DNA from: Candidatus Stahliibacteriota bacterium
GTDB taxonomy: Bacteria; Hydrothermota; Tepidihabitantia; SM23-42
Direction: 5' to 3'
DNA: 33,487 bases
NCBI GenBank assembly: GCA_030613445.1
Contig: JAUWLY010000002.1
Location: 1-33,487, forward strand
The notes beneath the pieces were generated by a model, which was not told the DNA's origin, did not search any database, and saw only the letters and a list, made by a program, of their open reading frames with translations. This document shows positions 43 through 15,820 of this stretch, piece by piece. A program made the translations under genes and the position numbers. Numbering within the stretch: position 1 is the first letter of the stretch; each line of letters starts with the position of its first letter.

Positions 43-303
43 TTAGGAAACATTTGTGCCAAGTTCCAACCTCTTCACTGCTTCCCTAAGATGAGCATCT
101 GATAAGTGGCTGTACTTCATTGTCATCGTAATATTCTTGTGACCCATTAATTCCTGAACTGCTCTAATGTCAACTCCAGCCATCACTAATTTCGAAGCCA
201 ATGTGTGACGCAGGTCGTGAAATCTGAAATTCTCAATCCGAGCGCGCTTTAATGCCCAGTTGGATTGAATGAATAAAAAAGGAGGCGAGCATATAATTAC
301 CAA
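43..303 (-). pseudogene. Tyrosine recombinase (phage-integrase family) C-terminal fragment
   Basis: Translation ...ENFRFHDLRHTLASKLVMAGVDIRAVQELMGHKNITMTMKYSHL... carries the HxLRH and terminal H..Y catalytic boxes of phage-integrase-family recombinases. Only the C-terminal ~65 aa are homologous. The first ~20 aa are unrelated and the frame opens on TTG. nt 147-257 recur at 32105-32215. Confidence 0.75.
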
Positions 304-331
304 CCTCCCTTTATTCTTATAGCCAATGGAA

Positions 332-532
332 CTATCGTAACAGTATTATCTTCTCTGGTTTTTCAAAATCAGCTGCTTCCACTCTCACAAAGTAAACTCC
401 GGCAGATAATCGTTTCGGCATAATCAAAAATTCATTCATTCCCACCTTAGCTTTGCCTTTTTGTATTGTAGTAGAAGGTAGTAGATTATGAAGCTGAAAA
501 CAGTCCTTGACATCCTTGAGGTTAACAGTATA
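332..532 (-). pseudogene. 3' remnant of a gene for a T9SS C-terminal-sorting-domain protein
   Basis: The minus-strand frame ending at TAG (332-334) reads ...KGKAKVGMNEFLIMPKRLSAGVYFVRVEAADFEKPEKIILLR*. This matches the tails of the intact proteins ending at 2053, 5874 and 31975. There is no start codon, and the frame is closed by a stop near 575 and cut off by the + strand gene starting at 551. Confidence 0.5.
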
Positions 533-550
533 ATTATAGAGGAGATAGGG

Positions 551-2053
551 ATGAAAAAAAGTATCTATTTAAGTCTTTTTTACATTTTGACTTTTTGTTT
601 TCCACTTATCAATTCCAACATATATGCCCAATCAGATTGGAGTGTGGATGTGAGATTAACCTATTTTTGGGGAGATTCTGATGGCCCTCGGGCAGCGTGT
701 AATGGCGACACAGTTCATTTGGTCTGGCGTGAGCATTATTGGATTAATTCAAATCTTCACGAGGAAGTTTTTTACAAACGCAGCACCGATGCCGGTGTAA
801 CCTGGAGTGATAGTGTAAGGTTGACGACCGAGGATACCATATCTAGTGCGTCCCCAAAGGTTGCGGTTTGGGAAAACAATGTTCATGTTATCTGGAATGA
901 ACGTGGTAATTGTTATTATGCGCTGTGTTACAGAAAAAGCACTGATGGTGGCGAGACATGGGGACTGGTAGATACCTTAAGAAAACACCTTGAAGGTGGT
1001 TGGGGAGCTTCCTGGTTGGCTGTTAGTAGTATTAATGTCTATGTTGTTTTCATTCGTGAGGACAGTAGGATGATATTTATGAAGAGCACTGACAATGGTT
1101 CAAACTGGTCAAGCCAGATAGAAGTAGGGTCTGGTTCTGCTAACCCGCGCATAGATGTATTCACTCTTAATGATTCGTGCTTGGTGACATGTGCCAGTTA
1201 TTTCTCTTCTGCTGTAGAAGTGCTCTTTTATAAAAGCACGGATGCGGGAGTGACCTGGAGTGATAGTCAGTGTGTTTCACATTATGATTCAATCAGTAGT
1301 CAACGTCATGCAGTGGACACAGACGATAGTGGCGGTGTTCATGTTGTGTGGTATGACTATAAATATTCGCCTTATCCCTGGACTGGTGATATATTTTACC
1401 GATCGAGCAGGGATTCGGGCACTACGTGGGAGCTTATAGATTCATTGACCGTAGCGCATCGAGCCTTTTATTCGGATATTCTTGCTCAGGGCAACAACTT
1501 GCACTTGGTCTGGATGGATGACCGCCATGATTTCGATCATAACTTTGAGATTTACTATCGCATGAGCACAGATTTAGGGCAAACCTGGGCTCCTGAAGTG
1601 CGGTTAACCAATGCCCCTAATTGGTCTAGTTCGCCATCCTTGGCGTGCGATGGTCGATATCTTCATCTTTTCTGGTCAGATGCAAGAGAAGATACAATCA
1701 ACACGATAGGTGAGATCTATTATAAACGCAAAGATCTTTTGGTGCCGATATCCGAAGAGCATGAATCTTCTCATTCTTCACAGTTCTCTGTAGAAGTCTG
1801 GCCAAATCCATTTACTGCAGATATTTACCTGCGGATAACAGGCGGCAGATATGGTAAAGATAATGCTGGGCAGAAATCAATTGTCAATGTGAAACTTTAT
1901 GACATTTCAGGAAAGGAGGTGATATCCCATATAATAAAAGAAAGAACAAAAGGAATCAGCGTAGATACCAAAGACCCGCCCTGTGGAGTGTATTTCCTCT
2001 GCATTGAGACAGAATCTGAAAGTATAATGAAAAAAGTTGTGAAAGTAAAATGA
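551..2053 (+). CDS. Secreted BNR/Asp-box repeat protein (sialidase-like beta-propeller) with T9SS C-terminal sorting domain
   Basis: Repeated S-x-D-x-G-x-T-W boxes (STDAGVTWS twice, STDGGETWG, STDNGSNWS, SRDSGTTWE, STDLGQTWA). C-terminal tail is VWPNPF...LYDISGKEV...GVYFLCIE...KVVKVK. I prefer the ATG at 551 (GGAG upstream, then signal peptide MKKSIYLSLFYILTFCFPLINSNIYAQ) over the track start at 488. Confidence 0.8.
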   Translation: MKKSIYLSLFYILTFCFPLINSNIYAQSDWSVDVRLTYFWGDSDGPRAACNGDTVHLVWREHYWINSNLHEEVFYKRSTDAGVTWSDSVRLTTEDTISSASPKVAVWENNVHVIWNERGNCYYALCYRKSTDGGETWGLVDTLRKHLEGGWGASWLAVSSINVYVVFIREDSRMIFMKSTDNGSNWSSQIEVGSGSANPRIDVFTLNDSCLVTCASYFSSAVEVLFYKSTDAGVTWSDSQCVSHYDSISSQRHAVDTDDSGGVHVVWYDYKYSPYPWTGDIFYRSSRDSGTTWELIDSLTVAHRAFYSDILAQGNNLHLVWMDDRHDFDHNFEIYYRMSTDLGQTWAPEVRLTNAPNWSSSPSLACDGRYLHLFWSDAREDTINTIGEIYYKRKDLLVPISEEHESSHSSQFSVEVWPNPFTADIYLRITGGRYGKDNAGQKSIVNVKLYDISGKEVISHIIKERTKGISVDTKDPPCGVYFLCIETESESIMKKVVKVK

Positions 2054-2085
2054 TCTGATCTGTTTTGTAATGAAAAGGAGCAAAC

Positions 2086-5000
2086 ATGAAGCGTATATTA
2101 ATAACCATCATAAGTCTACCGCTGATTGTATTATCAGCAGAGTGGCAGTCATTAGATGCCCCCCATGCAGGACGGGCCATTGATATGAGTATAGGACAAG
2201 ATGGTCCTACCTGGGTCATCTATGCGGCAAACAAGGATTATAAGATATACAGCTCAACAAATGATGGTGCATCGTGGCAAGTGCCTACATTAGAAACCCA
2301 AGTAGATAAAGCTACGTGTGTAATCACGCGTCCAACTGGAGCCCAGTATGTTTATATTGGTAAGTATGAGAATAGTTCACCACCCGAAGTTGTTTGGCGG
2401 TCCACAAACAGTGGTGAGAATTGGCATAACCGCAGTGGTACTTCCCCTGATAACATTGAAAACACTTGGCCTCTCTGCTTTGCTATGCACCCGACAAATT
2501 CGGATATTATTTATGCCGGCTTTGATGCGACCGGTGGCTCGGAATGCTTCTATAAAACAACAAACGAAGGTGCAAACTGGACTGAATGCGGCATAGGTTA
2601 TTCAGTCAGAGACATCTTTGTAGATCCAGGTGACCCTGATAATCTTTATATAGCTACTAACAATTCGGTCTACATGAGTACTGATGCCGGCGCGTCATGG
2701 GAACAGATAGCTCCTCCGCCCAATGGTTCAGACGTATACAGTGTTGCCCTGAATAGCTCCAACGTGCTATTTGCCGGTGTTACTGTATATGGGTATGAAG
2801 AAACATACAGTAAAATCTTCAAAAGATCTGTTTCTATATGGGTAGAGGTCTACAGTTTAGGTCCTATATATCCCTATGTACCTACAGTAAATAAAATTGT
2901 GATTGATAATTCTGATGAAAGCTACATGTACGCAACATTTTGGCCATTTGGATTCCACAAAAGTGATGATTATGGTAATTATGGGAGCTGGGAAGAAAAG
3001 AATAGTGGCATAGTCGATAAGTACTTGTTTTCTTTGATTCAACATCCAAGTTCCGGTTACCTGTTTGTTGGTGGTGATATTGCCTGTTTGTATAAAAGCA
3101 CAGATTGTGGTGAAAACTGGACAGAAACTGTCGAGGGTATGAAACTCGCAGATGTGAGAAGTCTCGCCGTGTTAAATAATATTGTATATGGCGTTACATA
3201 TACTCCATATGAGGGATCTCTTTATGATGGGGTAACAATGGGTACTAGCGGAGGTCAAGACTGGCAATGGTTAAATTTGTGCGATCATTTCGCTGGCTAT
3301 TGTGGTGGGAGCTATATAGAAATCGCACCTTCCAACACTGAATATGTTTATGAAGCATTTGGGGCTGCAGGTAATGGCTTTATTACAAGAACAACTGATG
3401 GTGGTAAAGCGTGGATACTCAAGGTCGATTGCGGCAGCTATTTAGTCAATGACCTGACTGTTGGTCGCACTAATCATAACATAGTGCGTGCGTCAACCGA
3501 ATGCTTTGGAGCCCTCTCCCCTCCTCTTGTTCTTCGAACAACTAATGGTTGGGATAGCTGGACATGGGCTGAATTTCCATCTCCAGGTTATCTTCGGACG
3601 GTTGAAACCGACCCTCTGAACCTGGATGTTGTATATGCCGGAGGCTGGTGGCAGCTCCCTCCTACAGAAGCTAACAGAGGACCTTACTTGAAGAAAAGCA
3701 CGGATGGTGGTGTTAACTGGAACAATGCAGTTACAGGGATGAGGGGAAGTGTTAAAGAGATAGCAATTGATCCAATAAATACACAAAATCTGTATGCTGT
3801 AAGTGACTCAGGCCCATTTAGAACAACCAACGCAGGAGAGTTGTGGACGAGAAAGAAAATTGGATTATCTGAATATTACGGCACAGATATCATCATTGAT
3901 CCTGAGGAACCATCGATTATTTATGCATTAACGCAGCAGGATGCATTATCAACAACTAACTCATTTTATTGCACAGTCGATGGTGCAGCAGAATGGTTTC
4001 AGTTCACACTGCCACCAAGCCAAGATCCACCGAGTTACATCCATGAAATAACAATCGATGATTCACAAGCAGACCAAATCTATGCAGGAACACAGAACGG
4101 TATTTATTTGTTTTATCCCGACTATAAAATTAAGAATCTGACGAGCAGTGCAAATAAGGCAACCAGTGTGAATTCGGCAAAGAAAATGCTTTTAGGCGGA
4201 TTAAATATCTGGATAACTTATGAGAGTGGCGGTGTTATATATGCGGTTCACAGTAGTGATGAAGGTTACACCTGGTCGCGCAAAATGGAGATAGGTCATG
4301 GTTATAATCCAGCAATAAGCTCCAATCCTGATGCTGAGACACCGATACCCGGCATTGTCTGGTGGGCACCGGGTGACAAGGACACGCTCTATTTTGCCAA
4401 ACATGTATCTGGCTACAATTGGACCACACCCTTTGAGATCAAAGTATCAGCTGATGGATGCGACTTCGGACCGCCATCATTTGTGATTGGCACCGACAAT
4501 AAAGGTCGTGTCGTCTACCAAACCACCTCGGATGGCAAAATTAACTACACAGAATTTGACATTACTAATCCAAATCCAATTGACCCTGAAGAAGTCGGTG
4601 ATGGCATTAATCCGAGTATCGGCTTTATGATACCTGGGTCAAGTAATCCTGAAATCCATGTCGTCTGGGAAGATAATAATAAGATCAGGTACAAATCGAG
4701 AACGATCTCAGGAACCTGGGACAATTATTACACTGTTTGTACGAATAACTCAAAAGATCCTTCTATTGAGGTTGAAGGTTCTAATGTATATGTCGTATGG
4801 GAAAAACGAGCAGATATTCACTATCGTTATGCAGTCTACACCCAGAATGGTCAGCATACTTGGTCAAAACTTGATGATTTTGCCACTGATGATCCATCAA
4901 GCTATCCTGTGCTTACTGGTGGTAACGCGGTGAGCTGGGTCGAATATGTAAACAGCACCACTTACGAGATCTACTTCTCTTATAATTCTGGTTCTGGCTG

Positions 5001-5874
5001 GGTAGATCCCATTAATATTAGCCAAAACACAGAATACTCCCACTACCCCCATATTGTTCATAAACAAACGCTTCTGGGCACTATAGTCTATTTCACTTGG
5101 ACTGAGAATGATAATCCACCTTATGACGTGAGATTTGACAATTATACCTTTGGTGGATCAAACCCTGAGGCTGATCTTGCATTCTATATTGCTGAAGGCG
5201 GAGAACCAAAGGCATCGCCATTTAATCTACATCGTGACGGTTATCTGCAGTACGGACCTGAATTTCATAAGAAGATAGATTATGATTCTGAATATCTTGA
5301 GTATCAGTTCGAAAAACTTAATCCAGCAAGAGAATATGCTCTTGCTGCATATGCATATCAGGAAGGCAATAATAATCTGCCGATCACGATCAAAATAGAC
5401 AACGTTACAATTGGCGGAATTAATCTTCCACCAGAGACACTGATTGTGTGTAAAGAAATGGTGCCAGAAAATCTATATGCTGATAGTGCTGTTGATGTGA
5501 AGATATTTGGAAATAAAGCTGTGACTGCGGCTTTGGTGCTTTATGAGTATGAGAGAGAATCAGACAAAGGCGGTGGAGGGCCACAGGATGCAGGTGCTAC
5601 GCCGTTTAATATTGATAAACTTACGCTGAGTATTTCTCCTAATCCAGTTCGCAAGGATGTGAACATACGGTATACATTACCCCAATCCACTAAAGTTACT
5701 CTTTCGGTCTATGACGTTGCAGGCAGACTGGCGAGGACGTTAGTCAATTCCACTCAGAAACCAGGTTCATATCAGCAGTCTTTCAACACGGCGAATTTGT
5801 CACAGGGTGTCTATTTTGTCAGGTTACATACCGGCGATAAATCGATCGTGGAAAAAGTGATTTTCTTAAAATAG
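2086..5874 (+). CDS. Large secreted multi-BNR/Asp-box beta-propeller protein (sortilin/VPS10-like repeats) with T9SS C-terminal sorting domain
   Basis: AAGGAG-type SD before the ATG and signal peptide MKRILITIISLPLIVLSA. At least 10 Asp-box motifs (STNDGASWQ, STNSGENWH, TTNEGANWT, STDAGASWE, STDCGENWT, TTDGGKAWI, STDGGVNWN, SSDEGYTWS...). Tail is ISPNPV...LSVYDVAGRL...GVYFVRLHTGDKSIVEKVIFLK. Confidence 0.85.
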   Translation: MKRILITIISLPLIVLSAEWQSLDAPHAGRAIDMSIGQDGPTWVIYAANKDYKIYSSTNDGASWQVPTLETQVDKATCVITRPTGAQYVYIGKYENSSPPEVVWRSTNSGENWHNRSGTSPDNIENTWPLCFAMHPTNSDIIYAGFDATGGSECFYKTTNEGANWTECGIGYSVRDIFVDPGDPDNLYIATNNSVYMSTDAGASWEQIAPPPNGSDVYSVALNSSNVLFAGVTVYGYEETYSKIFKRSVSIWVEVYSLGPIYPYVPTVNKIVIDNSDESYMYATFWPFGFHKSDDYGNYGSWEEKNSGIVDKYLFSLIQHPSSGYLFVGGDIACLYKSTDCGENWTETVEGMKLADVRSLAVLNNIVYGVTYTPYEGSLYDGVTMGTSGGQDWQWLNLCDHFAGYCGGSYIEIAPSNTEYVYEAFGAAGNGFITRTTDGGKAWILKVDCGSYLVNDLTVGRTNHNIVRASTECFGALSPPLVLRTTNGWDSWTWAEFPSPGYLRTVETDPLNLDVVYAGGWWQLPPTEANRGPYLKKSTDGGVNWNNAVTGMRGSVKEIAIDPINTQNLYAVSDSGPFRTTNAGELWTRKKIGLSEYYGTDIIIDPEEPSIIYALTQQDALSTTNSFYCTVDGAAEWFQFTLPPSQDPPSYIHEITIDDSQADQIYAGTQNGIYLFYPDYKIKNLTSSANKATSVNSAKKMLLGGLNIWITYESGGVIYAVHSSDEGYTWSRKMEIGHGYNPAISSNPDAETPIPGIVWWAPGDKDTLYFAKHVSGYNWTTPFEIKVSADGCDFGPPSFVIGTDNKGRVVYQTTSDGKINYTEFDITNPNPIDPEEVGDGINPSIGFMIPGSSNPEIHVVWEDNNKIRYKSRTISGTWDNYYTVCTNNSKDPSIEVEGSNVYVVWEKRADIHYRYAVYTQNGQHTWSKLDDFATDDPSSYPVLTGGNAVSWVEYVNSTTYEIYFSYNSGSGWVDPINISQNTEYSHYPHIVHKQTLLGTIVYFTWTENDNPPYDVRFDNYTFGGSNPEADLAFYIAEGGEPKASPFNLHRDGYLQYGPEFHKKIDYDSEYLEYQFEKLNPAREYALAAYAYQEGNNNLPITIKIDNVTIGGINLPPETLIVCKEMVPENLYADSAVDVKIFGNKAVTAALVLYEYERESDKGGGGPQDAGATPFNIDKLTLSISPNPVRKDVNIRYTLPQSTKVTLSVYDVAGRLARTLVNSTQKPGSYQQSFNTANLSQGVYFVRLHTGDKSIVEKVIFLK

Positions 5875-5895
5875 AAAGGTGGCGAAATTAAAAAA

Positions 5896-5937
5896 GAAGG
5901 GGAGTGACAAATCAAAATCACTCCCCTTCTTTTTTTG
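5896..5937 (+). terminator. Rho-independent terminator (bidirectional shape)
   Basis: Perfect 12-bp stem GAAGGGGAGTGA (5896-5907) / TCACTCCCCTTC (5918-5929). An A-run precedes it and a T-run follows (5930-5936), 22 nt after the stop of the 2086-5874 gene. Confidence 0.8.
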
Positions 5938-6034
5938 TGCGGTATTTGTGCGGTCCATATATCAAATACCTGTGACTGTTTGTTGTCTATAATATCCTGG
6001 TATGTTAGCGGTAGAAACGGTTTATTAGAAAACA

Positions 6035-6165
6035 AAGGGGCGGCAGTTATTCACCACCGACCCCCCTATTTTTTATGCTGGCAACCTTGTGCCAAATCTG
6101 TGCCATTTTATCACCAAAACATATGGTAACAGACAGAATTCCCAGTAATAGGCAGAATTGCGCAA
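6035..6165. repeat. Dispersed repeat family A, copy 1 (~130 bp)
   Basis: Aligns with 15437-15568 in the same orientation, with about five substitutions and one small indel by my count. Contains the 19-nt core TTGTGCCAAATCTGTGCCA (6087-6105). Confidence 0.85.
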
Positions 6166-6253
6166 AATGTTATCTGGCTTGCATTTGTGCGATTTTGAAC
6201 GTGATCTCAAAGGTTATGAAAAAGGTTCAAAACGCTCTCACATGCCGAAGGTC

Positions 6254-6278
6254 ATGCGTTCAAGTCGCATACCGCCCA
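6254..6278 (+). other. tRNA 3'-end fragment (T-arm + acceptor strand), likely att-site relic
   Basis: ATGCG-TTCAAGT-CGCAT forms a perfect 5-bp T-stem with a TTCRANY-type loop, followed by the 7-nt ACCGCCC and a discriminator A. No matching 5' acceptor strand (GGGCGGT), D-arm or pairable anticodon stem occurs upstream. Confidence 0.45.
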
Positions 6279-6325
6279 TTGATTCTCAACGTTTTGCGGG
6301 CACCGCCTGTTTTTCGCAGAGGCTC

Positions 6326-6385
6326 TTGTGCCAAATCTGTGCCAACTTCCAACCTCTTCACTGCTTCCCTAAGATGAGCATCCAT
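6326..6385 (-). pseudogene. 3'-terminal remnant of a tyrosine recombinase gene
   Basis: The minus strand reads DAHLREAVKRLEVGTDLAQ..., matching the C-terminus ...SDAHLREAVKRLELGT of the 43-303 fragment. Nucleotide identity to 62-107 stops abruptly at 6380. The open frame continues to a stop at 6260 inside the tRNA fragment. Confidence 0.6.
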
Positions 6386-6394
6386 AACTAGAAA

Positions 6395-6668
6395 TTTGTC
6401 AAGGGTAAAGTGTAATGGCGAGGCGTAAACAATAAAAAAAACTACCTATTGAATGTTGATTTGCTAATGATAAACTTATTTACCACTGTGATGAAAATGG
6501 CAAGACGCGTCTGTAACGGAAAAGACAGTGGATTCGGTCCTGACCCCACCGCCATTTAAATGGGGAGAATGGAATAGGGTCATTGAAAAAAGGTTAACGC
6601 GCATCTTCGAGGGCCGAGATACGTATGGGTAAAATAAAGTCAGATGTACTGCTATCAAGGATGAAAAA
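6395..6668 (+). promoter_or_regulatory. Conserved promoter + ~190-nt 5' leader, copy 1 (paralogue at 17440-17718)
   Basis: An A8 tract is followed by TTGAAT (6449-6454), a 16-nt spacer and TAAACT (6471-6476). A leader follows containing the invariant 20-mer GTGGATTCGGTCCTGACCCC, and TGACCC...GGGTCA can pair. It aligns along most of its length with the region upstream of the second rSAM cassette. Confidence 0.6.
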
Positions 6669-6977
6669 ATGAAAAAGATGATAGGTGGATCAATCTTACT
6701 AATCCTATGTTTTGCAGTCAGTGGATGGGCTGAGGCACCAGCGCATTGGCATGGATATGTGAATTATGAAGGAGACCCAGTAGAGGGTGAATCTGTTTAT
6801 ACAGAACCAACAGATGGGCAAACATCCACGAACGCGGATAGCTTCTATGATTCATGCAACGCAAATGGAATGGGAAACAGGAAACACTATGACTATGTTC
6901 ACGCTAAAAAAACCATTGGTAATCGCTTGAAGGCAGAGGTCTATTACGCTAACGACTATTACTATGAAGTTTTTTAG
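6669..6977 (+). CDS. Small secreted protein (signal peptide, Tyr-rich C-terminus), translationally coupled to the radical-SAM gene
   Basis: N-terminus MKKMIGGSILLILCFAVSGWA-EAP looks like a Sec signal peptide. The mature part has a single Cys (FYDSCNANG) and ends YYANDYYYEVF. Its last 14 nt overlap the start of 6964-8328. No family recognised. Confidence 0.6.
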   Translation: MKKMIGGSILLILCFAVSGWAEAPAHWHGYVNYEGDPVEGESVYTEPTDGQTSTNADSFYDSCNANGMGNRKHYDYVHAKKTIGNRLKAEVYYANDYYYEVF

Positions 6978-8328
6978 GTCTGAGAATAATTACAAGCTCT
7001 CCTATTACAATTATTTGCACACAAAAGATAATATAACAATATTATACAACACCTATACAGGGGCTCAAGCAAATATCACAAAGTCAGATCGAGATTTCAT
7101 TTTGCATTTATTTGAAAACCTAAACAATTTTGAATTGCGTAATAAGAGGCCGGATATATTCGCAAAAATGATTCAATGTGGTTTTATAGTCAAAGAGGAT
7201 ATTCACGAGATTGACTTTATCCGATTTCGCTATTATAAAGGGGCATTTTCTGTAAAGAATTTGTCATTTACTCTGCTACCAACTCGAGCGTGTAATTTTC
7301 GATGTATATACTGTTTCGAAGATGAAATCAATGAATCAATGAATGCAGATGATTGCCATAATGTCCTAGCATTTGTGAAACGGCAGATAAAAGAACAAAT
7401 GCCACAAGCAGTTTCAATAAATTGGTATGGAGGAGAGCCTCTTCTTAAGTTTGAGATCATAAAAAATTTGAGTGAAGAATTCATAGAAATTTTTAAGACA
7501 GCTAAGATCGAATATCAAGGTGCCATCGTGACCAATGGTTATTTATTGGATGATAGTATTGCAAAACAACTATTGAAGTTGGGCATTAAGATAATCCAAA
7601 TTACGTTAGACGGACCAGAGGAAATTCATGATAAACGCAGGCCTTTAAGAAATGGTGGACCTACTTATGGTAAAGTGAAAGCTGGCATTATTTCTGCAAA
7701 AAAATATTTTGACAGTGTAGATATAAGAATCAATGTAGATCGTGACAATTTATGCTCAATTAGGGACTTCTTGGAAACAGAAGAATGGCTTTACGGTGAG
7801 AATACCACAGTAAGACCTGGAAGATTGAGAGACTATACTGATGTTTGTAGTGGGTTTTCGCCATGTGAAAAAGGATTTTCTGCTCCTGAATTCTACGACG
7901 TATACAAATTGATAAGAGGTCTTACTAAAACAAAAAGGTGTAAAGAGGATAGTGTATTTCCTGCTGTTGTTCCAGTCAGAAGTTTTTACTGTGGCGCCCA
8001 GGTTATAAATACCTATACAATAGGTCCGAGATGTTTTGTTTATAAATGCACTGCATCCCTTGATCATGGTGATGAAGTGGGCATTATAGAAAATGGAAAA
8101 TTCCAGCCGAATGAAAGATTTGTTGCGTGGTTTCTAAGAGAGCACCCGACTTATACAGAGCCGTGCAAATCATGTAAGATGTTGCCAATGTGCATGGGTG
8201 GATGTCGAGTAATTAGATTGAGAAGTTCAAATCATGAAGAATTAAAAAATGGTATTTGCCGTCATTTCTCTCTTCTGCTGAACACTTATTTAGAAAGCGA
8301 AGTAGAAAAATTAAAAAAAGCGATGTGA
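6964..8328 (+). CDS. Radical SAM / SPASM-domain enzyme (peptide-maturase-like, anSME/AslB superfamily)
   Basis: CxxxCxxC cluster motif RACNFRCIYC, GGEPLL motif, and C-terminal SPASM cysteines CGAQ...GPRCFVYKC and CKSCKMLPMCMGGC. Confidence 0.9.
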   Translation: MKFFRSENNYKLSYYNYLHTKDNITILYNTYTGAQANITKSDRDFILHLFENLNNFELRNKRPDIFAKMIQCGFIVKEDIHEIDFIRFRYYKGAFSVKNLSFTLLPTRACNFRCIYCFEDEINESMNADDCHNVLAFVKRQIKEQMPQAVSINWYGGEPLLKFEIIKNLSEEFIEIFKTAKIEYQGAIVTNGYLLDDSIAKQLLKLGIKIIQITLDGPEEIHDKRRPLRNGGPTYGKVKAGIISAKKYFDSVDIRINVDRDNLCSIRDFLETEEWLYGENTTVRPGRLRDYTDVCSGFSPCEKGFSAPEFYDVYKLIRGLTKTKRCKEDSVFPAVVPVRSFYCGAQVINTYTIGPRCFVYKCTASLDHGDEVGIIENGKFQPNERFVAWFLREHPTYTEPCKSCKMLPMCMGGCRVIRLRSSNHEELKNGICRHFSLLLNTYLESEVEKLKKAM

Positions 8329-8355
8329 AACTATTTACGAAAGGAGGTGATAATC

Positions 8356-8475
8356 ATGGATATTACAAAGCAACCACTAACCTGTTTAGAATGCAAAAAC
8401 CGGGAAACCGATGCTGAAATTGCTTTGGTTTGTCATTCTGGTTGTTGTGCCAGTAGTTGTTTTGCTATACTGTAA
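8356..8475 (+). CDS. 39-aa Cys-rich peptide, candidate RiPP precursor (not in ORF track)
   Basis: My translation is MDITKQPLTCLECKNRETDAEIALVCHSGCCASSCFAIL*. A near-perfect SD AAGGAGGTGA (8341-8350) lies 5 nt before the ATG, which is 27 nt after the rSAM stop. It has 7 Cys, five of them in the last 14 residues. Confidence 0.6.
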   Translation: MDITKQPLTCLECKNRETDAEIALVCHSGCCASSCFAIL

Positions 8476-8526
8476 ATCACATGGTTTAAGAAGCAGGTAC
8501 AAAGCTCGGATGGTGATAATTAATTG

Positions 8527-9109
8527 TCGTCATCCGAGCTGGTATTAGCGATTGCGCGCAATAATCCGGAGTTTAGTTGTCGGGTGTTGGCCGTGAAGAT
8601 CATCGATGAGGAAGCGTTCAGCGTATCGGCATTGACCGTGGCTCGGTTGTAAAGGAAAGAAGGCTTAGTTGAGCCGCGCCCGATTACTGACGTGCCAGTC
8701 GCCAAATCCTGACATCACAAGACCAAAGGATGTGAGAAGATATGGCAGTGTGACGCGATGTACTATTTTGTGGTGGGCTGGGGTTATTGCAGGCAGATTA
8801 CAGTGCAGGATGACTATTCCCGGTATCCTTTGACTTGGGGGTGAAGCCGGATGAGACTGCATTCAGCATCAGCGAGGTGGTGGAGAAAACCATTGAGAAT
8901 GCAGAGCAGCAAGGTCACTTACAGAATGGCAACAGGCCAAAGTTTGTATCGGACAATGAACCGGGTTATACTTCAAAGATTCTTGCTGGGTATCTACTGG
9001 GTATCTAAATGTGAGTCCTCGGGATATATTTGCAGGCAGAAAGGAGGAAATATTACAGAAACGAGCAAAAAAAGTGCTTGATTCTAGCACGAAGGAGATT
9101 ATAATATAG
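8527..9109 (+). pseudogene. Degenerate DDE transposase (rve integrase-core type, IS481/IS3-like)
   Basis: Pieces sit in three frames: ...LAVKIIDEEAFSVSALTVARL* (HTH region), KIWQCDAMYYFVVGWGYCRQITVQDDYSRYPLTWG* (first catalytic D), GVKPDETAFS...RPKFVSDNEPGYTSKILAGYLLGI* (SDN second D) and SPRDIFAGRKEEILQKRAKK. The segment that should hold the catalytic E is missing. Confidence 0.7.
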
Positions 9110-9333
9110 TGGGTAAACATAATGATATACAGTTCTCTGAAGTGTAAGTTAAAAAATGAGCGATTTGTCCAAAATCGGCTGAAGCATAGTAATTATAGTA
9201 TTGCTATACAAAAAAAGGGAGGAATCCCAGACCTACGCCATTTCTCACAGAAATTTCACAGTTTTTATGTATGTTGACATAATGGTACCTTGACTGTAAT
9301 AGCGCAGGGCATATAATAATTTAGGGAGGACTT

Positions 9334-9498
9334 ATGCATAGGAATATCTTTGTATTATCATTGATTATGGGCATATATTTTTCATTTGCCACATCAACCT
9401 ACACGATACGCAAATTTGATAAACCTGAAGTTGATGAAGTCTCTGATAGTGAAAAGATTCCACACCGAATCCTGTTCCGTCAAATAATAGTTGATTAA
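9334..9498 (+). CDS. Hypothetical 54-aa protein with hydrophobic N-terminus
   Basis: MHRNIFVLSLIMGIYFSFATSTYTIRKFDKPEVDEVSDSEKIPHRILFRQIIVD*. SD AGGGAGGA lies just upstream. Preceded by TTGACT (9290-9295), a 16-nt spacer and TATAAT (9312-9317). No family recognised. Confidence 0.35.
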   Translation: MHRNIFVLSLIMGIYFSFATSTYTIRKFDKPEVDEVSDSEKIPHRILFRQIIVD

Positions 9499-9594
9499 GC
9501 GCAGAATGTCCAATGTTCAGACCTGACCCCTCTTTTTCCCTTTTCAAACACTGCACCTATACTATGTTTCAAGGACTGAAAATATCGTATCAGC

Positions 9595-9622
9595 TTGACA
9601 ACTGTATGTGCGTTAGTATAAT
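9595..9622 (+). promoter_or_regulatory. Consensus sigma70-type promoter of the GWxTD operon
   Basis: TTGACA (9595-9600), a 16-nt spacer and TATAAT (9617-9622). AGGAGGTGG SD and the GTG start at 9655 lie downstream. Confidence 0.55.
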
Positions 9623-9654
9623 GTAAGGAGGAAGATTATTATAGGAGGTGGAAT

Positions 9655-10890
9655 GTGACCGTAGTGGCATATTTCATATTTATTGCGGCAATTGACATTA
9701 ATGTTTACCGTTTTGCTGAGAATTATGTAGAGTTTTGGTATCAAATTCCTGTAAATCAAGTTTTTGCGCTGGATGAACTGAATGCTGCAAAAGAAGATAC
9801 AATCTTCAAAGAGTACTCCTACCGCCTTGATATCTACAATATAGCAGATGACGATTCTGGCTATTTTGAAGGTACGAAGGGGGCTTTAGTAATTCCCGAG
9901 CAACGGCATGACTATTTCATTGACTATATACCAGCCTATTTGTATCCTGGTGAATTTCTTTATACCTTGGCAATAGAAACTGGTGATTATGCTGTGTCGT
10001 ATGATGGTGCAATTCAACTATCTGCAGATACAAGTGGTCTTTTTTGCAGTGACTTGATCTTAGGTAAGAAAAACCATGATGAAAACCTGGTTTGCCATGG
10101 CTATACGTTCAGACCGAAAATCCCGGCGCATTTCACCGAATATGATAATCTATTTACATATATGGAAATTTATGGATTAATCCCTGATAGTCTCCTTTAT
10201 AGTATTCAATACAGGATTGTTGATAGCTTAGAGAATATTGTGTTTGAACACGCTGAGAGACGAATTAAATATGACTTTGTGCAGATAGATACTTGTTATA
10301 CGAGCTTACATAATTATATAGATGGATCGTATAAATTGACTGTGTGTGTTTACGACCCCTCGCAATGCGATACACTTATTTGCGAAGCAGAGTTTAGGGT
10401 TGTTACATCGTTGGACATGGTGGCCAACGCGGTATTCTACAGTGATATTCAACACCTTCTAAGTCCTGAAGAATATAAGGATTTTCTAAAACTCGACGTT
10501 CATGAAAAAAAAGTATATCTGAAGAAATTCTGGTCAACAAGGAACTATTGGGAATTTGAGAAGCGAATTATAGAAGTAGATGCGCAGCTTGGAACACCGT
10601 TTGCTCTAGGACGCGACACTGATCGTGGCAGGATATACATACAACTTGGTCCTCCTGAATGGATCGATTCCCGATCCATGGAAAAAACTTGGCTCTATGA
10701 AGATTTAAAGGCCGGAGCAAGAGTCGGAAGCCCCTGTCAAATCTGGCATTACGATGGCAGAGGCATTCGTTTACTATTTTGTGACACTAACAAAGACGGT
10801 GATTTTGAACTTCTTGGCTACTTTGGCGCTCACGAAGAGTATGAGGAATTTTTAAAGGACCACCAAGAGTTAATGGGATATTTTGATTAA
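9655..10890 (+). CDS. GWxTD domain-containing protein
   Basis: C-terminal region ...KKFWSTRNYWEFEKRIIEVDAQLGTPFALGRDTDRGRIYIQLGPPEWID...IWHYDGRGIRLLFCDTNKDGDFELL matches the GWxTD signature (G-x-x-TDRG..Y...G.P ... W.Y). GTG start follows a strong SD. Confidence 0.8.
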   Translation: MTVVAYFIFIAAIDINVYRFAENYVEFWYQIPVNQVFALDELNAAKEDTIFKEYSYRLDIYNIADDDSGYFEGTKGALVIPEQRHDYFIDYIPAYLYPGEFLYTLAIETGDYAVSYDGAIQLSADTSGLFCSDLILGKKNHDENLVCHGYTFRPKIPAHFTEYDNLFTYMEIYGLIPDSLLYSIQYRIVDSLENIVFEHAERRIKYDFVQIDTCYTSLHNYIDGSYKLTVCVYDPSQCDTLICEAEFRVVTSLDMVANAVFYSDIQHLLSPEEYKDFLKLDVHEKKVYLKKFWSTRNYWEFEKRIIEVDAQLGTPFALGRDTDRGRIYIQLGPPEWIDSRSMEKTWLYEDLKAGARVGSPCQIWHYDGRGIRLLFCDTNKDGDFELLGYFGAHEEYEEFLKDHQELMGYFD

Positions 10891-10914
10891 AGAGGGATAA
10901 TAGGTATTTCAAAA

Positions 10915-12231
10915 ATGCGACGCGCAAATAGAAAAAATACAAAGGTGTTTACCTTACACATATGTTGTATTCTTATGGTCTGTTTGGCTTGCTCGGCAGT
11001 GAATATATTCGCAAGTCGCTATTATAGGCTTCTTGAGAAGGAACGTAAAATTTTTCTTGGCTTTAGGGGCATTGATTCATTGGCTGCGGTTGAGTACATT
11101 ACACTGGAAACAGTTACTGAGCGGACGCAATACTATGAAGCTTTTTGGTTTGGAAGATCAGAACATGAACGGCAGGAATTTGAGAAACGAATCGAATATG
11201 CTCATAGGGTATTTGGCAAACATGCGCCACTGAGTGATGACAGAATTCCGATTTATGTGAAGCATGGAGAACCTTCAATTAGAGAAGAGATTTCTCCGAA
11301 AAAGAAGATTGCAGTAAAAATCAAAGAATCAGTTAAACCAGCGGAAATCTGGACATACTACGCTGATGGTTTGATCTTTGATTTCATACGCATTGCAAGA
11401 GCATATAAATTAATCGCTGAGTCTGAATTTGGTGAACGAGTGAACGTACCTTTTCTTCAAGAGGTGGTGCAAGATACGAATTTCACAATTCAATCCATGC
11501 TGCCTCTGGAATTTAACGTGACAACTGCAAGATATCGCCAAAAGAAGAACCTGACACGCCTGGAAGTATATCTTACAGTTGAGATAGATGATACGACAGG
11601 GAGTGAATTGCTGCGAAGCATTAAAGTTTTTAATACCAATGATAGTCTTGTGCAGTTCCAATCTGATCTTCTCAAACCTACGGGGAAGAAAGGTGGTTTG
11701 TTTTTTGACCAAGTGAATTTCTGGCTTGATCCCGAACTATATCGTCTGGAAATTCAGTTGACGGATCTCAAAAACAAACAATGCAGTACTGACACGATAC
11801 AAGTTAGCCTTATCGACTACCAAGATGATGGCAAGGAAATAAGCGATTTGATCGTTGCCAAGTTAATCGACGATATATTCACACATTATAAGTTCGAAAA
11901 GCCAGTGGGGCGTGTTATTCCACTGATAGACCGCAAATTCTCTGTGCACACCCCTTTTTACCTGTATGCTGAAGCTTATAATTTACACACAAAAAACGGT
12001 GAACATACAATTAGAATTACCTATGAAGTATATAATAAAGAAAAAATGCGGCAGGAAGTAGTCGATGCGGTAATAGAAAACGAAACAGAAGTTGGGGAGA
12101 TTGCCTATCTTGCTACTGAATATCACCCAATGGATTTGGACCCCGGAGTTTACATGATAGTATTGAGAGTTGAGGATCTATTTGGCGGCAAAGAACGAAC
12201 AGCTGTCTGCGAGTTCGAACTGGTAGAGTAA
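10915..12231 (+). CDS. GWxTD domain-containing protein (divergent paralogue, domain N-terminal)
   Basis: Signal-anchor MVCLACSAVNIFA, then YYEAFWFGRSEHERQEFEKRIEYAHRVFGKHAPLSDDRIPIYVKHGEPS...PAEIWTYYADGLIFDFI. This is the same motif order as the upstream gene but located near the N-terminus. Confidence 0.7.
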   Translation: MRRANRKNTKVFTLHICCILMVCLACSAVNIFASRYYRLLEKERKIFLGFRGIDSLAAVEYITLETVTERTQYYEAFWFGRSEHERQEFEKRIEYAHRVFGKHAPLSDDRIPIYVKHGEPSIREEISPKKKIAVKIKESVKPAEIWTYYADGLIFDFIRIARAYKLIAESEFGERVNVPFLQEVVQDTNFTIQSMLPLEFNVTTARYRQKKNLTRLEVYLTVEIDDTTGSELLRSIKVFNTNDSLVQFQSDLLKPTGKKGGLFFDQVNFWLDPELYRLEIQLTDLKNKQCSTDTIQVSLIDYQDDGKEISDLIVAKLIDDIFTHYKFEKPVGRVIPLIDRKFSVHTPFYLYAEAYNLHTKNGEHTIRITYEVYNKEKMRQEVVDAVIENETEVGEIAYLATEYHPMDLDPGVYMIVLRVEDLFGGKERTAVCEFELVE

Positions 12232-12233
12232 GT

Positions 12234-13454
12234 ATGCGCAGATACATACTATCCTTTTTCATGATTTTAATTCATGTTGTGTATGCTTCAGTCTACCTTA
12301 ATACTGCAAGAATTGCCTACTTCAATGAGCAGGACTATGCACGTGCAAGACGGGCGTGTCTTACAGGAATTGAACAGGGTGAAATTGATTTTGAGTTGTA
12401 TGCAATTCTGGCAGGATGTGAAATTGCCTATGGGAACTGGGGAAAAGCAGCCAATGCTCTATTCGAAGCCATCAAGGTTGATTCTGCCAAGACGTTCGAA
12501 TGGATGGACAAAAAAGGTGGCGGGTTGAAGTACTATCATCAGGCCTTTTATTTTTCTGCACGAGCACTATTTCTTGAAAATGAAAACGAAGAGGCTCTAG
12601 AACGAATCGATTATGCTAGATTTCTGCACGGTAGTGATATAAATACTGTAATTCTGAGGGGTGCTATTCTCTACAAACTGGGAAAGATTGAAGAGGCAAA
12701 CCGGGAATATAGCAATGTTCTCGCCATAGACCCAAGAAATCCTGACGTGCATTTTCTCATTGGTAAAGCCTTATTTGAGATTGATGAATTTGATAGCAGC
12801 CTGGTATACTTCAATAACGCCCTTGATTTCTATAATCCTCGTTATGAACGTACACTTTATGTATTATTTCAAAATGCATCAGAGAGTAATATAGATATTG
12901 CAATGGAAATATTGGCTTTGTGGAGGGACAGGAAAATACATGAACTTGACCAAATATTGAAGGCTGAACTTGCGCTTGACAACGGTTTGATTGCCCACAG
13001 TGAGACTATATCAAAACTGGATAGGACTGCTACTGATCTTGCCCGTGCTTATTACTATGCAGGTTTAAGCTACTACCATATCAAAGAGGACAGTCTTGCA
13101 TTGGACAATCTGCGTGCGTGTCTTAAACTCAAATCTGATGATACAGACGCTCTTTTCTATGCTGGAGAAATCTTGGTAAAATTTAAAGCATACGATCAAG
13201 CCGTGGTGTATTTGGACAAGGCTGCACATCTGAATCCTGATGATCAATATGCGTGGTTCTATCTTGGTGTATGCTACACAAAATTGAAGGAATATGATAA
13301 GGCGATAGGTGTCTATGAGAAAATGCTTGGATCAAATCCTGAGCGTATTGATGTACTGACCAATCTTGCATATTTATACTCTGAGCTCGGTGCTTACGTT
13401 AAATCAAATGAATATCTTAGAAAGGCTGAACTGATTCAGAAAAAACCGCAATGA
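12234..13454 (+). CDS. Tetratricopeptide-repeat protein (secreted)
   Basis: Hydrophobic N-terminus. Repeated 34-aa A/Y/L-pattern units (e.g. AYYYAGLSYYHIKEDSLALDNLRACLKLKSDD, AWFYLGVCYTKLKEYDKAIGVYEKMLGSNPE). Starts 2 nt after the previous stop. Confidence 0.8.
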   Translation: MRRYILSFFMILIHVVYASVYLNTARIAYFNEQDYARARRACLTGIEQGEIDFELYAILAGCEIAYGNWGKAANALFEAIKVDSAKTFEWMDKKGGGLKYYHQAFYFSARALFLENENEEALERIDYARFLHGSDINTVILRGAILYKLGKIEEANREYSNVLAIDPRNPDVHFLIGKALFEIDEFDSSLVYFNNALDFYNPRYERTLYVLFQNASESNIDIAMEILALWRDRKIHELDQILKAELALDNGLIAHSETISKLDRTATDLARAYYYAGLSYYHIKEDSLALDNLRACLKLKSDDTDALFYAGEILVKFKAYDQAVVYLDKAAHLNPDDQYAWFYLGVCYTKLKEYDKAIGVYEKMLGSNPERIDVLTNLAYLYSELGAYVKSNEYLRKAELIQKKPQ

Positions 13455-14203
13455 ATATCAGGGTTTCTTGCATTCTAATGTGCATATTAATGGTTGCTTT
13501 CTGCACTGCCGATGGATTGTCACAGGATTCTCCAGATATTGTCTTGTTGGATGCCATGGGTGATTATTATAATGGTGAATATTCCAAGGCTATTAAGCTT
13601 TTAGAAGATGCGTTGGAGAATTATGAGGATGGGAACAGGCTTACCGCACACAAATTTTTGGCTTTTTGCTACATAGCAATCGGTGTCAACTTGCAAGCCT
13701 TGGTGCATTTCAAGAAAGTTCTAAGTATAGACTCAGACTTTGAATTGGATTCATTGGCAGTGACATCAGCGATCTATACGGTATTCAGAGAAGCAAAACG
13801 AGAAAGGGCCCAGGAAGGAGCATGCTGTTCATGTTTTATTCCTGGATATGGACAATTTATGAAGGGCGAAGATGTAAAGGGAAAAGTGATATGTGCCACC
13901 AGTGGAATAACACTGGTGGCAACACTCCTTTTATGGTTTAGGACTGACCATGAGCATACCGAATACCTGTCTCTGGGACCAGATGAAAGAGACAGAATCG
14001 AAGATGCGTATCAAAGCTATAATCGGTGGTACAGAATTTCGCTTGCTGGTACCACACTGTTTGCTGCAATGTACTTGTATAGTATATTTGATGCATTTCC
14101 GTTTGGCAGTTCCACGACGAAATCAAGTAGTGGCTCTGGTTTTGGATTCAATTTGCATGAAGATAGTGAAACCATCAAGATCGGTTTCAGGATCTCCTTA
14201 TGA
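13451..14203 (+). CDS. TPR-like membrane protein
   Basis: ATGA overlap with the previous gene. Signal peptide, TPR-like unit (GDYYNGEYSKAIKLLEDAL), then PGYGQFMKG followed by two predicted TM helices (VICATSGITLVATLLLWF, ISLAGTTLFAAMYLYSIF). Confidence 0.65.
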   Translation: MNIRVSCILMCILMVAFCTADGLSQDSPDIVLLDAMGDYYNGEYSKAIKLLEDALENYEDGNRLTAHKFLAFCYIAIGVNLQALVHFKKVLSIDSDFELDSLAVTSAIYTVFREAKRERAQEGACCSCFIPGYGQFMKGEDVKGKVICATSGITLVATLLLWFRTDHEHTEYLSLGPDERDRIEDAYQSYNRWYRISLAGTTLFAAMYLYSIFDAFPFGSSTTKSSSGSGFGFNLHEDSETIKIGFRISL

Positions 14204-15129
14204 CGACCAGGAGATTAGTTGTTGTAACAGCCGCTATTGCATTCATTCTGTTCTCCTGTATTAATGCGCCACGTGATAGTATCTATGATCCCAATAATCC
14301 CAATAGGGCGTATATTGTTGGTATTGTATGTGAACCAGACAGTTCGCCTGTAGATGGTGCAGTTATTACCTTGAGCATAGATGAGCAGATTATCAAAGCT
14401 GATACAACTGATGATACTGGAGGTTACGAGATAGAGGATATAATCCCTGATATCTACAAACTAACAGTGGAATCTCCCTTGTATTATGATGTATGGGAAC
14501 AATATCCAGAAAGTCTGTGGGCAGAGACATATTTAGACAATTATGATATTTTTCTTGATACATATGTATTTGAAGATGATTCGATTGGCACTGTTATCCC
14601 TTATGCTTTTGGTGCTGCATATGGTAGTTGGTCTATTGTCGAGGATAATGGACAACCAGAAAAGCATTCGGTACCAAATGTCTATAAAGGAGAAGATAGT
14701 GACACCACCGAACCAGCAATATCGCTGTTGCAGCAAACAGATATCACTGCCTTCTATTTCGCTGCCAAGCTGAAAGTACTGAGCGCATCGGGTACAGACT
14801 GGCAGGTTGGGATTGTCTACCGGTTTCAAAACCCTATGAATTATTATCTCTTGAAGATTTATGCGGATTCAATCGTTGCATTAAAGGTTGTGGATGGAGC
14901 GGAGGTTCGTATTCAAGGTGTTGCTCAGATTTTTTCGACGGACATATGGTATTCACTCGCTGTTGAGTATGACAACACTCATATGACCATATACTTGAAC
15001 AATGAGTGGTGTATCGGGGCAACTGACGGTTCTATCAAACAAGGGCAGCTTGGCTTATGGGTGTCAGATTCGAACACAGGGACGGCAGCATCTGTATTTT
15101 TTGACGATGTAACAGTTCAATTACGCTAA
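14200..15129 (+). CDS. Lipoprotein with carboxypeptidase-regulatory-like Ig domain and LamG/DUF1080-like lectin-fold domain
   Basis: ATGA overlap with the previous gene and lipobox ILFSC. GIVCEPDSSPVDGAVITLS...TDDTGGYEIEDIIPDIYKLTV resembles the CarboxypepD_reg pattern. C-terminus WQVGIVYRFQNPMNYYLLKIY...WYSLAVEYDNTHMTIYLNNEW...GQLGLWVSD...VFFDDVTVQ resembles a concanavalin-like fold. Domain calls are by eye only. Confidence 0.65.
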   Translation: MTTRRLVVVTAAIAFILFSCINAPRDSIYDPNNPNRAYIVGIVCEPDSSPVDGAVITLSIDEQIIKADTTDDTGGYEIEDIIPDIYKLTVESPLYYDVWEQYPESLWAETYLDNYDIFLDTYVFEDDSIGTVIPYAFGAAYGSWSIVEDNGQPEKHSVPNVYKGEDSDTTEPAISLLQQTDITAFYFAAKLKVLSASGTDWQVGIVYRFQNPMNYYLLKIYADSIVALKVVDGAEVRIQGVAQIFSTDIWYSLAVEYDNTHMTIYLNNEWCIGATDGSIKQGQLGLWVSDSNTGTAASVFFDDVTVQLR

Positions 15130-15302
15130 TTTCTTGTAATTGAGATTCAGATTCTGGAACTTTCCGCTTTTTTATGATTTCAGGATGAAAAAGCACAGAT
15201 AAAGTATTGACAATTATTCAAACAAGATATATAGTCTTAGGTCAGAGTGCGGTTATGTTCGTGTAGAATGGAGGCTATTCACACTGTAACTAATGTTTAA
15301 GT

Positions 15303-15381
15303 TGTTGTGTTTCAGCACATGTGGCACACATTGGCTAAAAACTAACTTACACTCATAGGGTTGTGCACCAGCCAAAAAGGG
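15303..15381. repeat. Dispersed repeat family B, copy 1
   Basis: TGTTTCAGCACATGTGGCACACATTGGYTAAAAACTAACTTACACTCATAGG... is shared with 32401-32478, where it lies directly 5' of an integrase remnant on the minus strand. No integrase follows here. Confidence 0.7.
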
Positions 15382-15398
15382 GTATAATGAGATACCCC
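15374..15398 (-). terminator. Putative rho-independent terminator (minus strand)
   Basis: The minus strand reads GGGGTAT-CTCATT-ATACCCC followed by TTTTT (7-bp stem at 15379-15385 / 15392-15398). It lies downstream of the antitoxin-like gene and repeat A on that strand. Confidence 0.45.
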
Positions 15399-15436
15399 GA
15401 GGAAAAAACGTGGAGAACACAACTTTGTGAGAAATC

Positions 15437-15568
15437 AAGGGGATCGCAGTTATTCACCACCGACCCCCCTATTTTTTATATTGGCAACCTTGTGCCAAAT
15501 CTGTGCCATTTTATTACCAAAACATATGGTAACAGACAGAATTCCCAGTAATAAGCAGAATTACGCAA
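15437..15568. repeat. Dispersed repeat family A, copy 2
   Basis: Aligns with 6035-6165 in the same orientation. The 19-nt core TTGTGCCAAATCTGTGCCA is at 15490-15508. Confidence 0.85.
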
Positions 15569-15642
15569 GTGCTTGTCTTTGTTTCTTTTGGGAGCTTTTG
15601 AAGAAATCTAAAAACCTTTGGATGTAATTCAACTTCAAACAT
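15514..15642 (-). pseudogene. Truncated RelE/ParE-like toxin ORF
   Basis: The ATG overlaps the stop of the upstream small gene (ATGTTTGA). The N-terminus MFEVELHPKVFRFLQKLPKETKT resembles the start of RelE/ParE-family toxins, but the frame then runs into repeat A and stops after 42 codons. Recognition is weak. Confidence 0.3.
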
Positions 15643-15820
15643 TTTTAGGGCTTAGCTTGTCAATTGAGATGTATGAAGATATCGGCGTTTTTCTTGCTTC
15701 TACAAGTTGCCTTCTGGCTCTTTTGGTTAACTTGCCTTCTTCGACTAAAATATGTTTAATCAATTCTATTTCTTGCTTCAAGAAAGTAATTTCCCTATGG
15801 ATCTGTTGTAAAGTTGCCAT
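15635..15820 (-). CDS. Small coiled-coil antitoxin-like protein
   Basis: 61 aa: MATLQQIHREITFLKQEIELIKHILVEEGKLTKRARRQLVEARKTPISSYISIDKL... Size, coiled-coil content, the ...ARKTP..YISIDKL ending and the 4-8 nt stop/start overlap with a toxin-like ORF fit type II antitoxin architecture. Confidence 0.45.
   Translation of the reverse strand: MATLQQIHREITFLKQEIELIKHILVEEGKLTKRARRQLVEARKTPISSYISIDKLSPKNV

Follow-up and report, generated by a model that had tools for sequence, protein, structure and literature searches.

A candidate cis-acting leader RNA shared by radical-SAM peptide cassettes of WOR-3-like bacteria

Introduction

The downstream-peptide and glnA (glutamine) motifs are structured leaders that stand before very short open reading frames (ORFs) in uncultured and marine bacteria. 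LoaP-dependent leaders and EAR are structured leaders that head long biosynthetic operons and are linked to processive antitermination. To our knowledge, structured leaders before RiPP precursor genes are hardly documented, and we know of nothing on gene regulation in WOR-3; our literature search for such RNAs in WOR-3 found none. Comparative genomics has yielded orphan cis-regulatory motifs in 5' untranslated regions (5' UTRs) (Weinberg et al., 2017, PMC5737381; Fremin and Bhatt, 2021, PMC8040213). The sole published radical-SAM-linked candidate that we found, HMP2_1881 of gut Bacteroidetes, is a long hairpin (GCCAAUCACAUA...) adjoining rSAM "mobile pair" genes, and it is a different hairpin, unrelated to the element described here.

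We analyzed 33,487 nucleotides of contig JAUWLY010000002.1 (assembly GCA_030613445.1) from a Candidatus Stahliibacteriota bacterium; this whole stretch is referred to below as the window. An earlier note on this DNA had proposed that two radical-SAM cassettes are preceded by a shared promoter and a structured 5' leader RNA of no known family. This proposal is supported by homologues, by compensatory base changes, and by an additional helix, P0. Judged from its sequence, the element is of a known kind, a structured cis-regulatory leader RNA, that lies outside the catalogued families. Like the orphan 5'-UTR motifs, it is ~100 nt long, lies on the strand of the gene, has covarying stems and one variable stem, and occurs in a narrow lineage. 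Its sequence and fold differ from those of the downstream-peptide and glnA motifs, it has no Rfam match, and the ORFs that it precedes include Cys-rich RiPP-type precursors and secreted proteins of ~100 aa. It resembles the LoaP-dependent and EAR leaders in that one window copy (copy B) heads an operon of peptide, maturase, exporter, and further genes. Unlike those leaders, it has no gene for a NusG paralogue near the window copies, one of its homologues (L006j) stands before a lone gene with a terminator-like hairpin at its end (identified by eye), and its fixed spacing of 35–48 nt points to the first ORF, not to elongation.

Results

In the earlier note, positions 6395–6668 (copy A, winA) were aligned with 17440–17718 (copy B, winB). 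We confirmed that 6395 to ~6625 aligns with 17440 to ~17672, which is most of that span, and found that its right end does not belong to the alignment. Identity between the copies is 47% in the left flank, 89% from the upstream box through the A8 tract, 77% from the -35 through the -10 element, 68% from the presumed start site up to the RNA core, 66% in the core, 45% from the core through the ATG, and 42% at the beginning of the coding sequence. Because these values fall after the core, the similarity ends near 6625 and 17672 rather than at 6668 and 17718; across the full span (281 columns), identity is 69%. The longest exact run shared by the copies is 22 nt, which has P ~0.02 under uniform divergence, so conservation is patchy and not even.

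The sequence elements listed in the note are all present at the places given, including ATGAAAAT, CCAT-loop-ATGGGG, GGGTCAT, and CGAGAT. The 20-mer GTGGATTCGGTCCTGACCCC, at 6528–6547 and 17572–17591, has just these two matches in the window with three or fewer mismatches (0 expected). Taken alone, the 20-mer is weak evidence, because the promoter part likewise contains a run of 22 matches and because four homologues were chosen for a match to an 18-mer or to the 20-mer. The local hairpins described upstream in each copy do exist, but the loop in copy B has 7 nt, not 6 nt, and the hairpins are not conserved in other relatives. A comparison of both products bore out the claim that the first genes behind copies A and B are unrelated to each other. 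The radical-SAM/SPASM maturases of the two cassettes are 32% identical over 209 aa only, and their nearest NCBIfam models differ. Conservation is thus much higher in the noncoding region than in the genes behind it.

The window also contains gene remnants or 3'-end repeats of a tyrosine recombinase (Phage_integrase, PF00589) at 43–303 (minus strand), 32058–32390 (minus strand), 6335–6391, 6021–6199, 15303–15602, and 32401–32477. They bracket the segments ~300–6020, 6395–15300, and 15600–32058, an arrangement that suggests repeated island insertion or cassette turnover.

The conserved block consists of two layers, a DNA-level module with a promoter and an upstream box, and an older RNA core of ~100 nt. 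The predicted core has the following parts in the two window copies.

6528–6624, plus strand: RNA core of copy A (covariance-model match 84–86 bits, E ~1e-20)
6529–6541 with 6610–6623: helix P0 of copy A
6542–6546 with 6577–6581: helix P1 of copy A
6549–6555 with 6560–6565: helix P2 of copy A
6582–6609: joiner of copy A
17572–17671, plus strand: RNA core of copy B (covariance-model match 92–96 bits, E ~1e-23)
17573–17585 with 17657–17670: helix P0 of copy B
17586–17590 with 17625–17629: helix P1 of copy B
17592–17599 with 17606–17612: helix P2 of copy B
17630–17656: joiner of copy B

P0, which the earlier reader had missed, is a long-range helix (UUCGGUCCU/GGGNNCGA) that encloses P1 and P2 and pairs the 20-mer with the CGAGAT box. 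Its 5' strand is (U)UCGGUCCU and its 3' strand, the CGAGAT box, is GGGNNCGA(G); in window-like copies it gains five outward pairs past a one-base bulge. P1 (GACCC/GGGUC) follows directly on the 5' strand of P0 and is the TGACCC/GGGTCA pairing that had been noted. P2 is a hairpin on P1; its base is GCC/GGC, a U is usually bulged, and its distal stem is free in sequence. Across instances P2 ranges in length from 4 bp to a form of >17 bp that has a branched insert. In most copies, a purine-rich internal loop (RGGAAAAGU) separates P2 from the 3' strand of P1. P1 is in turn linked to the 3' strand of P0 by an A-rich single-stranded joiner of ~29 nt that often has YUCG at its end, and both this joiner and a U-G wobble in P0 are conserved. 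The core is a local peak of G+C content (0.48) in an intergenic region of 0.30–0.39.

We found 11 instances of the core in nine contigs (copies A and B, L001, L015, L006j, L024, L030–L033, and L058), and they recur in related uncultured WOR-3-like bacteria. When one genome per species was scanned for exact matches to the 20-mer, one more copy came up (L001, in a metagenome-assembled genome [MAG]). A scan of metagenomes for an 18-mer gave 27 loci, of which four, including L015, L006, and L024, were real after BLAST; the other 23 were chance matches, mostly in high-G+C coding DNA, and were discarded. L015 and L006 represent two copies that share a contig syntenic with the window, and the copy that crosses the L015/L006 boundary was reassembled by hand as L006j; L024 is more divergent. 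In contigs that encode homologues of the copy-B maturase, we found divergent elements upstream of the orthologous Cys-peptide gene in L030, L031, and L032 (protein identity to the maturase 50%, 48%, and 43%, respectively). A covariance model built from eight sequences then found L033 (E 5e-14) and L058 (E 1e-8) unaided; L058 is a MAG named candidate division WOR-3. The collection of homologues that the earlier note had called for therefore comprises nine further instances in other contigs, and five of these (L030, L031, L032, L033, and L058) were obtained without the conserved sequence as bait.

A scan of viral contigs for the core pattern gave chance matches only. With a second covariance model and with filters off, we found no element in L059–L063 (homologues of the copy-A radical-SAM protein) or in L034–L044 (distant homologues of the copy-B maturase). 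The leader of the copy-A maturase orthologue in L059 (9912–9975; also L060) has GTGGATTAGGTCCTGG, which matches the 5' end of the core at 14/16 positions; a UCCUGGUC/GACCCAGGA hairpin comes next, and the leader gets no score from either covariance model. It could be a degenerate or divergent relative.

RNAalifold, run on an unfitted MAFFT alignment, predicted the inner part of P0, P1, and P2 unaided. In that alignment 89% of cells pair, compared with 34–60% when the partners are slid, and nine pairs show double changes. The corresponding values for a hand-curated alignment of the 11 sequences, in which loops were replaced by spacers and absent positions were set to N, are 93.6% and 28–59%, with double changes at 15 of 25 pairs, and none of 500 shuffles reached the observed pairing. 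As this alignment was fitted by hand, its pair counts are an upper bound.

The earlier proposal that TGACCC/GGGTCA encloses a hairpin gains compensatory changes in both helices. Between copy B and its orthologue L015, which are 90% identical, P2 changes from CCAU/AUGG to UCAC/GUGA by two exactly compensating double changes, and in L024 it reads GUCC/GGAC. P1 is rewritten as GCUCU/AGAG-C in L030 and as GACUC/GAGUC in L032, and a U-A pair of P0 becomes C-G in L031, L058, and L033. L031 and L058 have nearly identical flanks and long P2 inserts that differ wholly, each with its own extended helix. Forty-four G-U cells make pairing better on the gene strand (93.6%) than on the opposite strand (78%).

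Minimum free energy (MFE) folding of single sequences recovers P0, P1, and P2 in copies A and B, L024, L030, and L032, and in copy B the motif fold is both the MFE and the centroid structure. In five of ten full-length leaders, the MFE structure is another fold. Folding energies are unexceptional (z -0.6 to -2.7), and most variation in P0 is one-sided (G-C/G-U, U-G/U-A). Conservation of the 18/20-mer block is overstated, since four homologues were caught by an exact match to it. We consider the predicted fold well supported for so few sequences, namely 11 from one narrow clade.

All 11 instances lie on the strand of the next ORF and end 35–48 nt before its start codon, and an AU-rich spacer and a strong Shine-Dalgarno sequence separate the core from the start codon. 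In the window these parts are as follows.

6625–6671, plus strand: spacer of copy A (44 nt), with Shine-Dalgarno AAGGA at 6657–6661 and the ATG of a 102-aa secreted protein at 6669
17672–17721, plus strand: spacer of copy B (47 nt), with Shine-Dalgarno AAGGAGG at 17707–17713 and the ATG of a 65-aa Cys-rich peptide at 17719

The 102-aa gene of copy A overlaps a radical-SAM/SPASM gene (6964–8328), and the 65-aa peptide gene of copy B is followed by genes for a CcpM-like radical-SAM maturase, an ABC exporter, and a DUF5916 protein. A Cys-rich peptide and then a CcpM-like maturase are encoded behind the core in copy B, L015, L030, L031, L032, and L058. Proteins of 102, 109, and 116 aa follow it in copy A, L024, and L006j, respectively; all three have a hydrophobic, signal-peptide-like segment at the N terminus. 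In L001 and L033, the products are peptides of 28 and 40 aa. The only similarity between the small proteins of copy A and L006j lies in the hydrophobic N-terminal region and in a W-x-G motif (31 aa, 35% identity).

By eye, we identified sigma-70-like promoters upstream of the L030 and L032 cores, and the L058 core is preceded, at a distance of 260 nt, by a sigma-54-like sequence (GGCACGATTTTTGCT). The L033 core starts at the stop codon of a gene for a B12-binding radical-SAM protein; it is thus intercistronic and has no promoter in front of it.

The DNA-level module has the following features.

6395–6411, no strand assigned: upstream box TTTGTCAAGGGTAAAGT of copy A; its reverse complement carries TTGACA
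17440–17456: upstream box TTTGTCAAGGGTAAAGT of copy B
17420–17456, minus strand: divergent promoter of copy B, TTGACA (17447–17442), 16 nt, TATAAT (17425–17420), a perfect match (12/12) to the consensus
6434–6476, plus strand: promoter of copy A, A8 (6434–6441), TTGAAT (6449–6454), 16-nt spacer, TAAACT (6471–6476)
17479–17521, plus strand: promoter of copy B, A8 (17479–17486), TTGACG (17494–17499), 16-nt spacer, TAAACT (17516–17521)

By consensus match, both copies have a sigma-70-type promoter, with its hexamers at a spacing within 16–18 nt, upstream of the element. In copy B, TTGACG-16-TAAACT scores 9/12 in a promoter scan; in copy A, TTGAAT-16-TAAACT (8/12) is under the cut-off of the scanner and was read by eye. 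The layout of A8, -35, and -10 recurs in L001, L015, L006j, and L032. On the opposite strand, the box (TTTGTCAA) is the predicted -35 element of a divergent promoter. Its -10 element is absent from copy A, because there the similarity begins exactly at the box, 4 nt past an integrase-gene fragment. A possible activator site is formed by three GTAA repeats that lie between the box and the A-tract.

The region upstream of the core is common to the window, L015, L006j, and L001 only; L032 has just the A-tract and the -35 element. The strongly conserved part upstream of the -35 is DNA-level (promoter, operator, and divergent promoter) and is confined to close relatives. L006j resembles copy B across 344 nt, of which 147 nt lie on the far side of the box, upstream of it, and has a different, single gene behind it. 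This pattern and that of copy A indicate that the promoter-plus-leader unit has been copied before different genes within this lineage.

Sigma-54-type promoters occur at orthologous Cys-peptide/radical-SAM cassettes in L033, L034–L039, L044, and L059. L033, L034, L059, and L041 (upstream, in the case of L041) encode enhancer-binding proteins, some of which have GAF and GGDEF domains. These genes are therefore tightly controlled in relatives by a system that is protein- and DNA-based, whereas the promoters of the window copies are sigma-70-like. In L058, a sigma-54 promoter and the RNA element occur together, which indicates that the RNA supplements such control and does not simply replace it.

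Sigma-54-type sites (e.g., TGGCACGAATATTGCT) were seen in L033 at 6150–6180, in L034 at ~6460–6485, in L044 at ~440–460, in L059 at ~9888–9905, and in L058 at ~7133–7147, and repeated upstream sites accompany the promoters in L035, L044, and L059. L058 also has a purine-rich repeat of ~170 nt (GGGGTTGAAGGTGAGAGGTTAGAAGTGAAAAGAGAAAGGAG...) upstream of two different radical-SAM cassettes (50–220 and 7190–7350), and one copy of it sits between the sigma-54 promoter and the RNA element.

A search of the whole window with Rfam 15 (4227 models) gave no matches at the gathering score; in the two regions, at E <=10, it gave snoRNA and lncRNA noise of 11–19 bits, far under threshold. A tRNA, a tmRNA, or a tRNA-derived att fragment was rejected, as ARAGORN found none in the window. 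We rejected an intrinsic terminator or attenuator, as there is no U-tract and no scan match after the core. A coding element or leader peptide was also rejected, as reading frames differ between copies on both strands and indels are not multiples of three; a frame that is open in copy A, L015, and L024 has stops in copy B, L001, L006j, L031, and L033 (checked by eye).

Discussion

Our best reading is that the block combines a DNA-level module with a new cis-acting structured leader RNA, which would represent a new family in WOR-3-like bacteria, and we regard it as reasonably probable. The core would act in cis on the small ORF behind it. A trans-acting factor would most likely bind the conserved G+C-rich P0 and P1 helices and the A-rich joiner, and its binding may set translation initiation or mRNA lifetime. 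This output step is a guess because scans and foldings of the leaders revealed no conserved expression platform, that is, neither a terminator nor a conserved element capable of sequestering the Shine-Dalgarno sequence. Alternative folds in which the pyrimidine-rich 5' half (CCUCC, ACCCC) pairs with the Shine-Dalgarno sequence occur in some leaders, L001 among them, and are not conserved. Nor are three further pairings that we considered: a P3 hairpin in the joiner, a pseudoknot that joins the P2 loop to the A-rich joiner, and a helix formed by the joiner with the region before the Shine-Dalgarno sequence, which is convincing in L001 and L024 only. Both window cassettes would share one post-transcriptional input on top of their shared promoter.

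As effector, an RNA-binding protein is slightly more likely than a small ligand. The most conserved residues lie in the G+C-rich helices, L032 is reduced, the distribution is narrow, and there is no metabolic theme; together these features make a protein-bound leader somewhat likelier than a classical riboswitch. Orthologous cassettes elsewhere that lack the element and have sigma-54 promoters and enhancer-binding proteins indicate that it is dispensable for these gene types.

The element joins otherwise unrelated genes for small peptides and secreted proteins into one putative regulon, and it is unusual in being associated with RiPP precursors in an uncultured phylum. A portable promoter-plus-leader unit with a putative regulon would provide a handle on switching on cryptic cassettes and driving their expression in a new host. 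Orphan RNA motifs number in the hundreds, and the value of this one among them hinges on finding its effector.

It is unlikely that the core is a riboswitch, that is, a small-molecule aptamer (e.g., for a signalling nucleotide, SAM, or a metal) that alters translation of the small ORF. P0, P1, and P2 do form a covarying, conserved, aptamer-like fold of the kind expected for a riboswitch class, with a variable-length peripheral stem at a fixed site, and both the A-rich joiner and the P0 U-G wobble are kept; however, the most conserved nucleotides lie within helices and not in junctions, and L032 has neither the internal loop nor the distal part of P2. The element also has a riboswitch-like fixed place in the 5' leader, but it has no terminator, and the Shine-Dalgarno sequence lies 25–35 nt past the fold with no conserved switching helix. 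Distant orthologous cassettes are under GAF/GGDEF enhancer-binding proteins, and thus the genes are signal-controlled elsewhere; the genes behind the core nevertheless suggest no metabolite, the distribution is very narrow, and no Rfam aptamer class matches. We regard it as rather improbable that the core is the aptamer of a new riboswitch class, or another direct RNA sensor, that gates RiPP precursors and small secreted proteins in WOR-3. If it were, the signal would be the one read by the GAF/GGDEF-type sigma-54 enhancer-binding proteins in sister lineages, and a findable ligand could trigger natural-product peptide synthesis in an uncultured phylum.

A further proposal of low probability is that the element serves processing or stabilization: an RNase would cut at or near the fold, and the helices would protect the 5' end of the mRNA, so that expression of the precursor or secreted protein would be high and uncoupled. 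Stabilizers of this kind are known at the 5' ends of aprE and ompA transcripts. L033, in which the element is intercistronic between a radical-SAM gene and a peptide gene, and L058, in which it lies 260 nt downstream of the promoter, make this role a serious alternative. Constant spacing to the start codon and small exported products that need high expression fit it as well. Simple stabilizers, however, rarely keep their primary sequence and a long-range helix across diverged genomes, and the present fold is of moderate stability only.

A purely DNA-level origin, by recent duplication or gene conversion of a promoter or operator and without RNA function, is very unlikely. It would account for the window segment upstream of the -35, which is the best conserved (89%), for the box as the -35 of a divergent promoter, for the stretches of up to 344 nt, upstream flank included, that close relatives share, and for the integrase remnants that flank the cassettes. 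Distant instances, however, share the transcribed core only, and their promoters differ or are absent; compensatory changes and the strand asymmetry of G-U pairs are unexpected for a double-stranded DNA site, and conservation is patchy. The earlier note had left open a DNA-level explanation; on sequence evidence alone, all promoters that can be located precede the core, and in one instance the core is intercistronic, which places the core inside the mRNA wherever this can be judged.

A folded single-strand recombination site (attC-like or another att) for the tyrosine recombinase can be dismissed almost outright: the Phage_integrase fragments at 43–303, 6335–6391, and 32058–32390, the start of copy A 4 nt past one of them, the imperfect hairpin with bulges and a variable terminal stem, and the location between ORFs recall such a site, but there are no RYYYAAC/GTTRRRY core sites, only two copies lie in the window, 11 kb apart (we rejected an integron attC on both grounds), these have their own promoters and form no cassette array, the 29-nt one-sided unpaired segment is unlike attC, the sense strand pairs better, the spacing to start codons is fixed, and the element occurs in contigs without a nearby integrase.

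Two observations concern the arrangement of genes around the element. In L033, two adjacent paralogous short peptide genes (5813–5935 and 6272–6421) share a GHTVQE..QPH motif; the RNA element precedes one of them and a sigma-54 promoter precedes the other, with genes for a Cys-rich peptide and a maturase downstream. In the window, a stem-loop (GCTTGGAGGCTGCGGCTTCCAAGC, 17917–17960) immediately follows the Cys-peptide gene, ahead of the maturase gene, and it could be an attenuator that uncouples the levels of precursor and enzyme.
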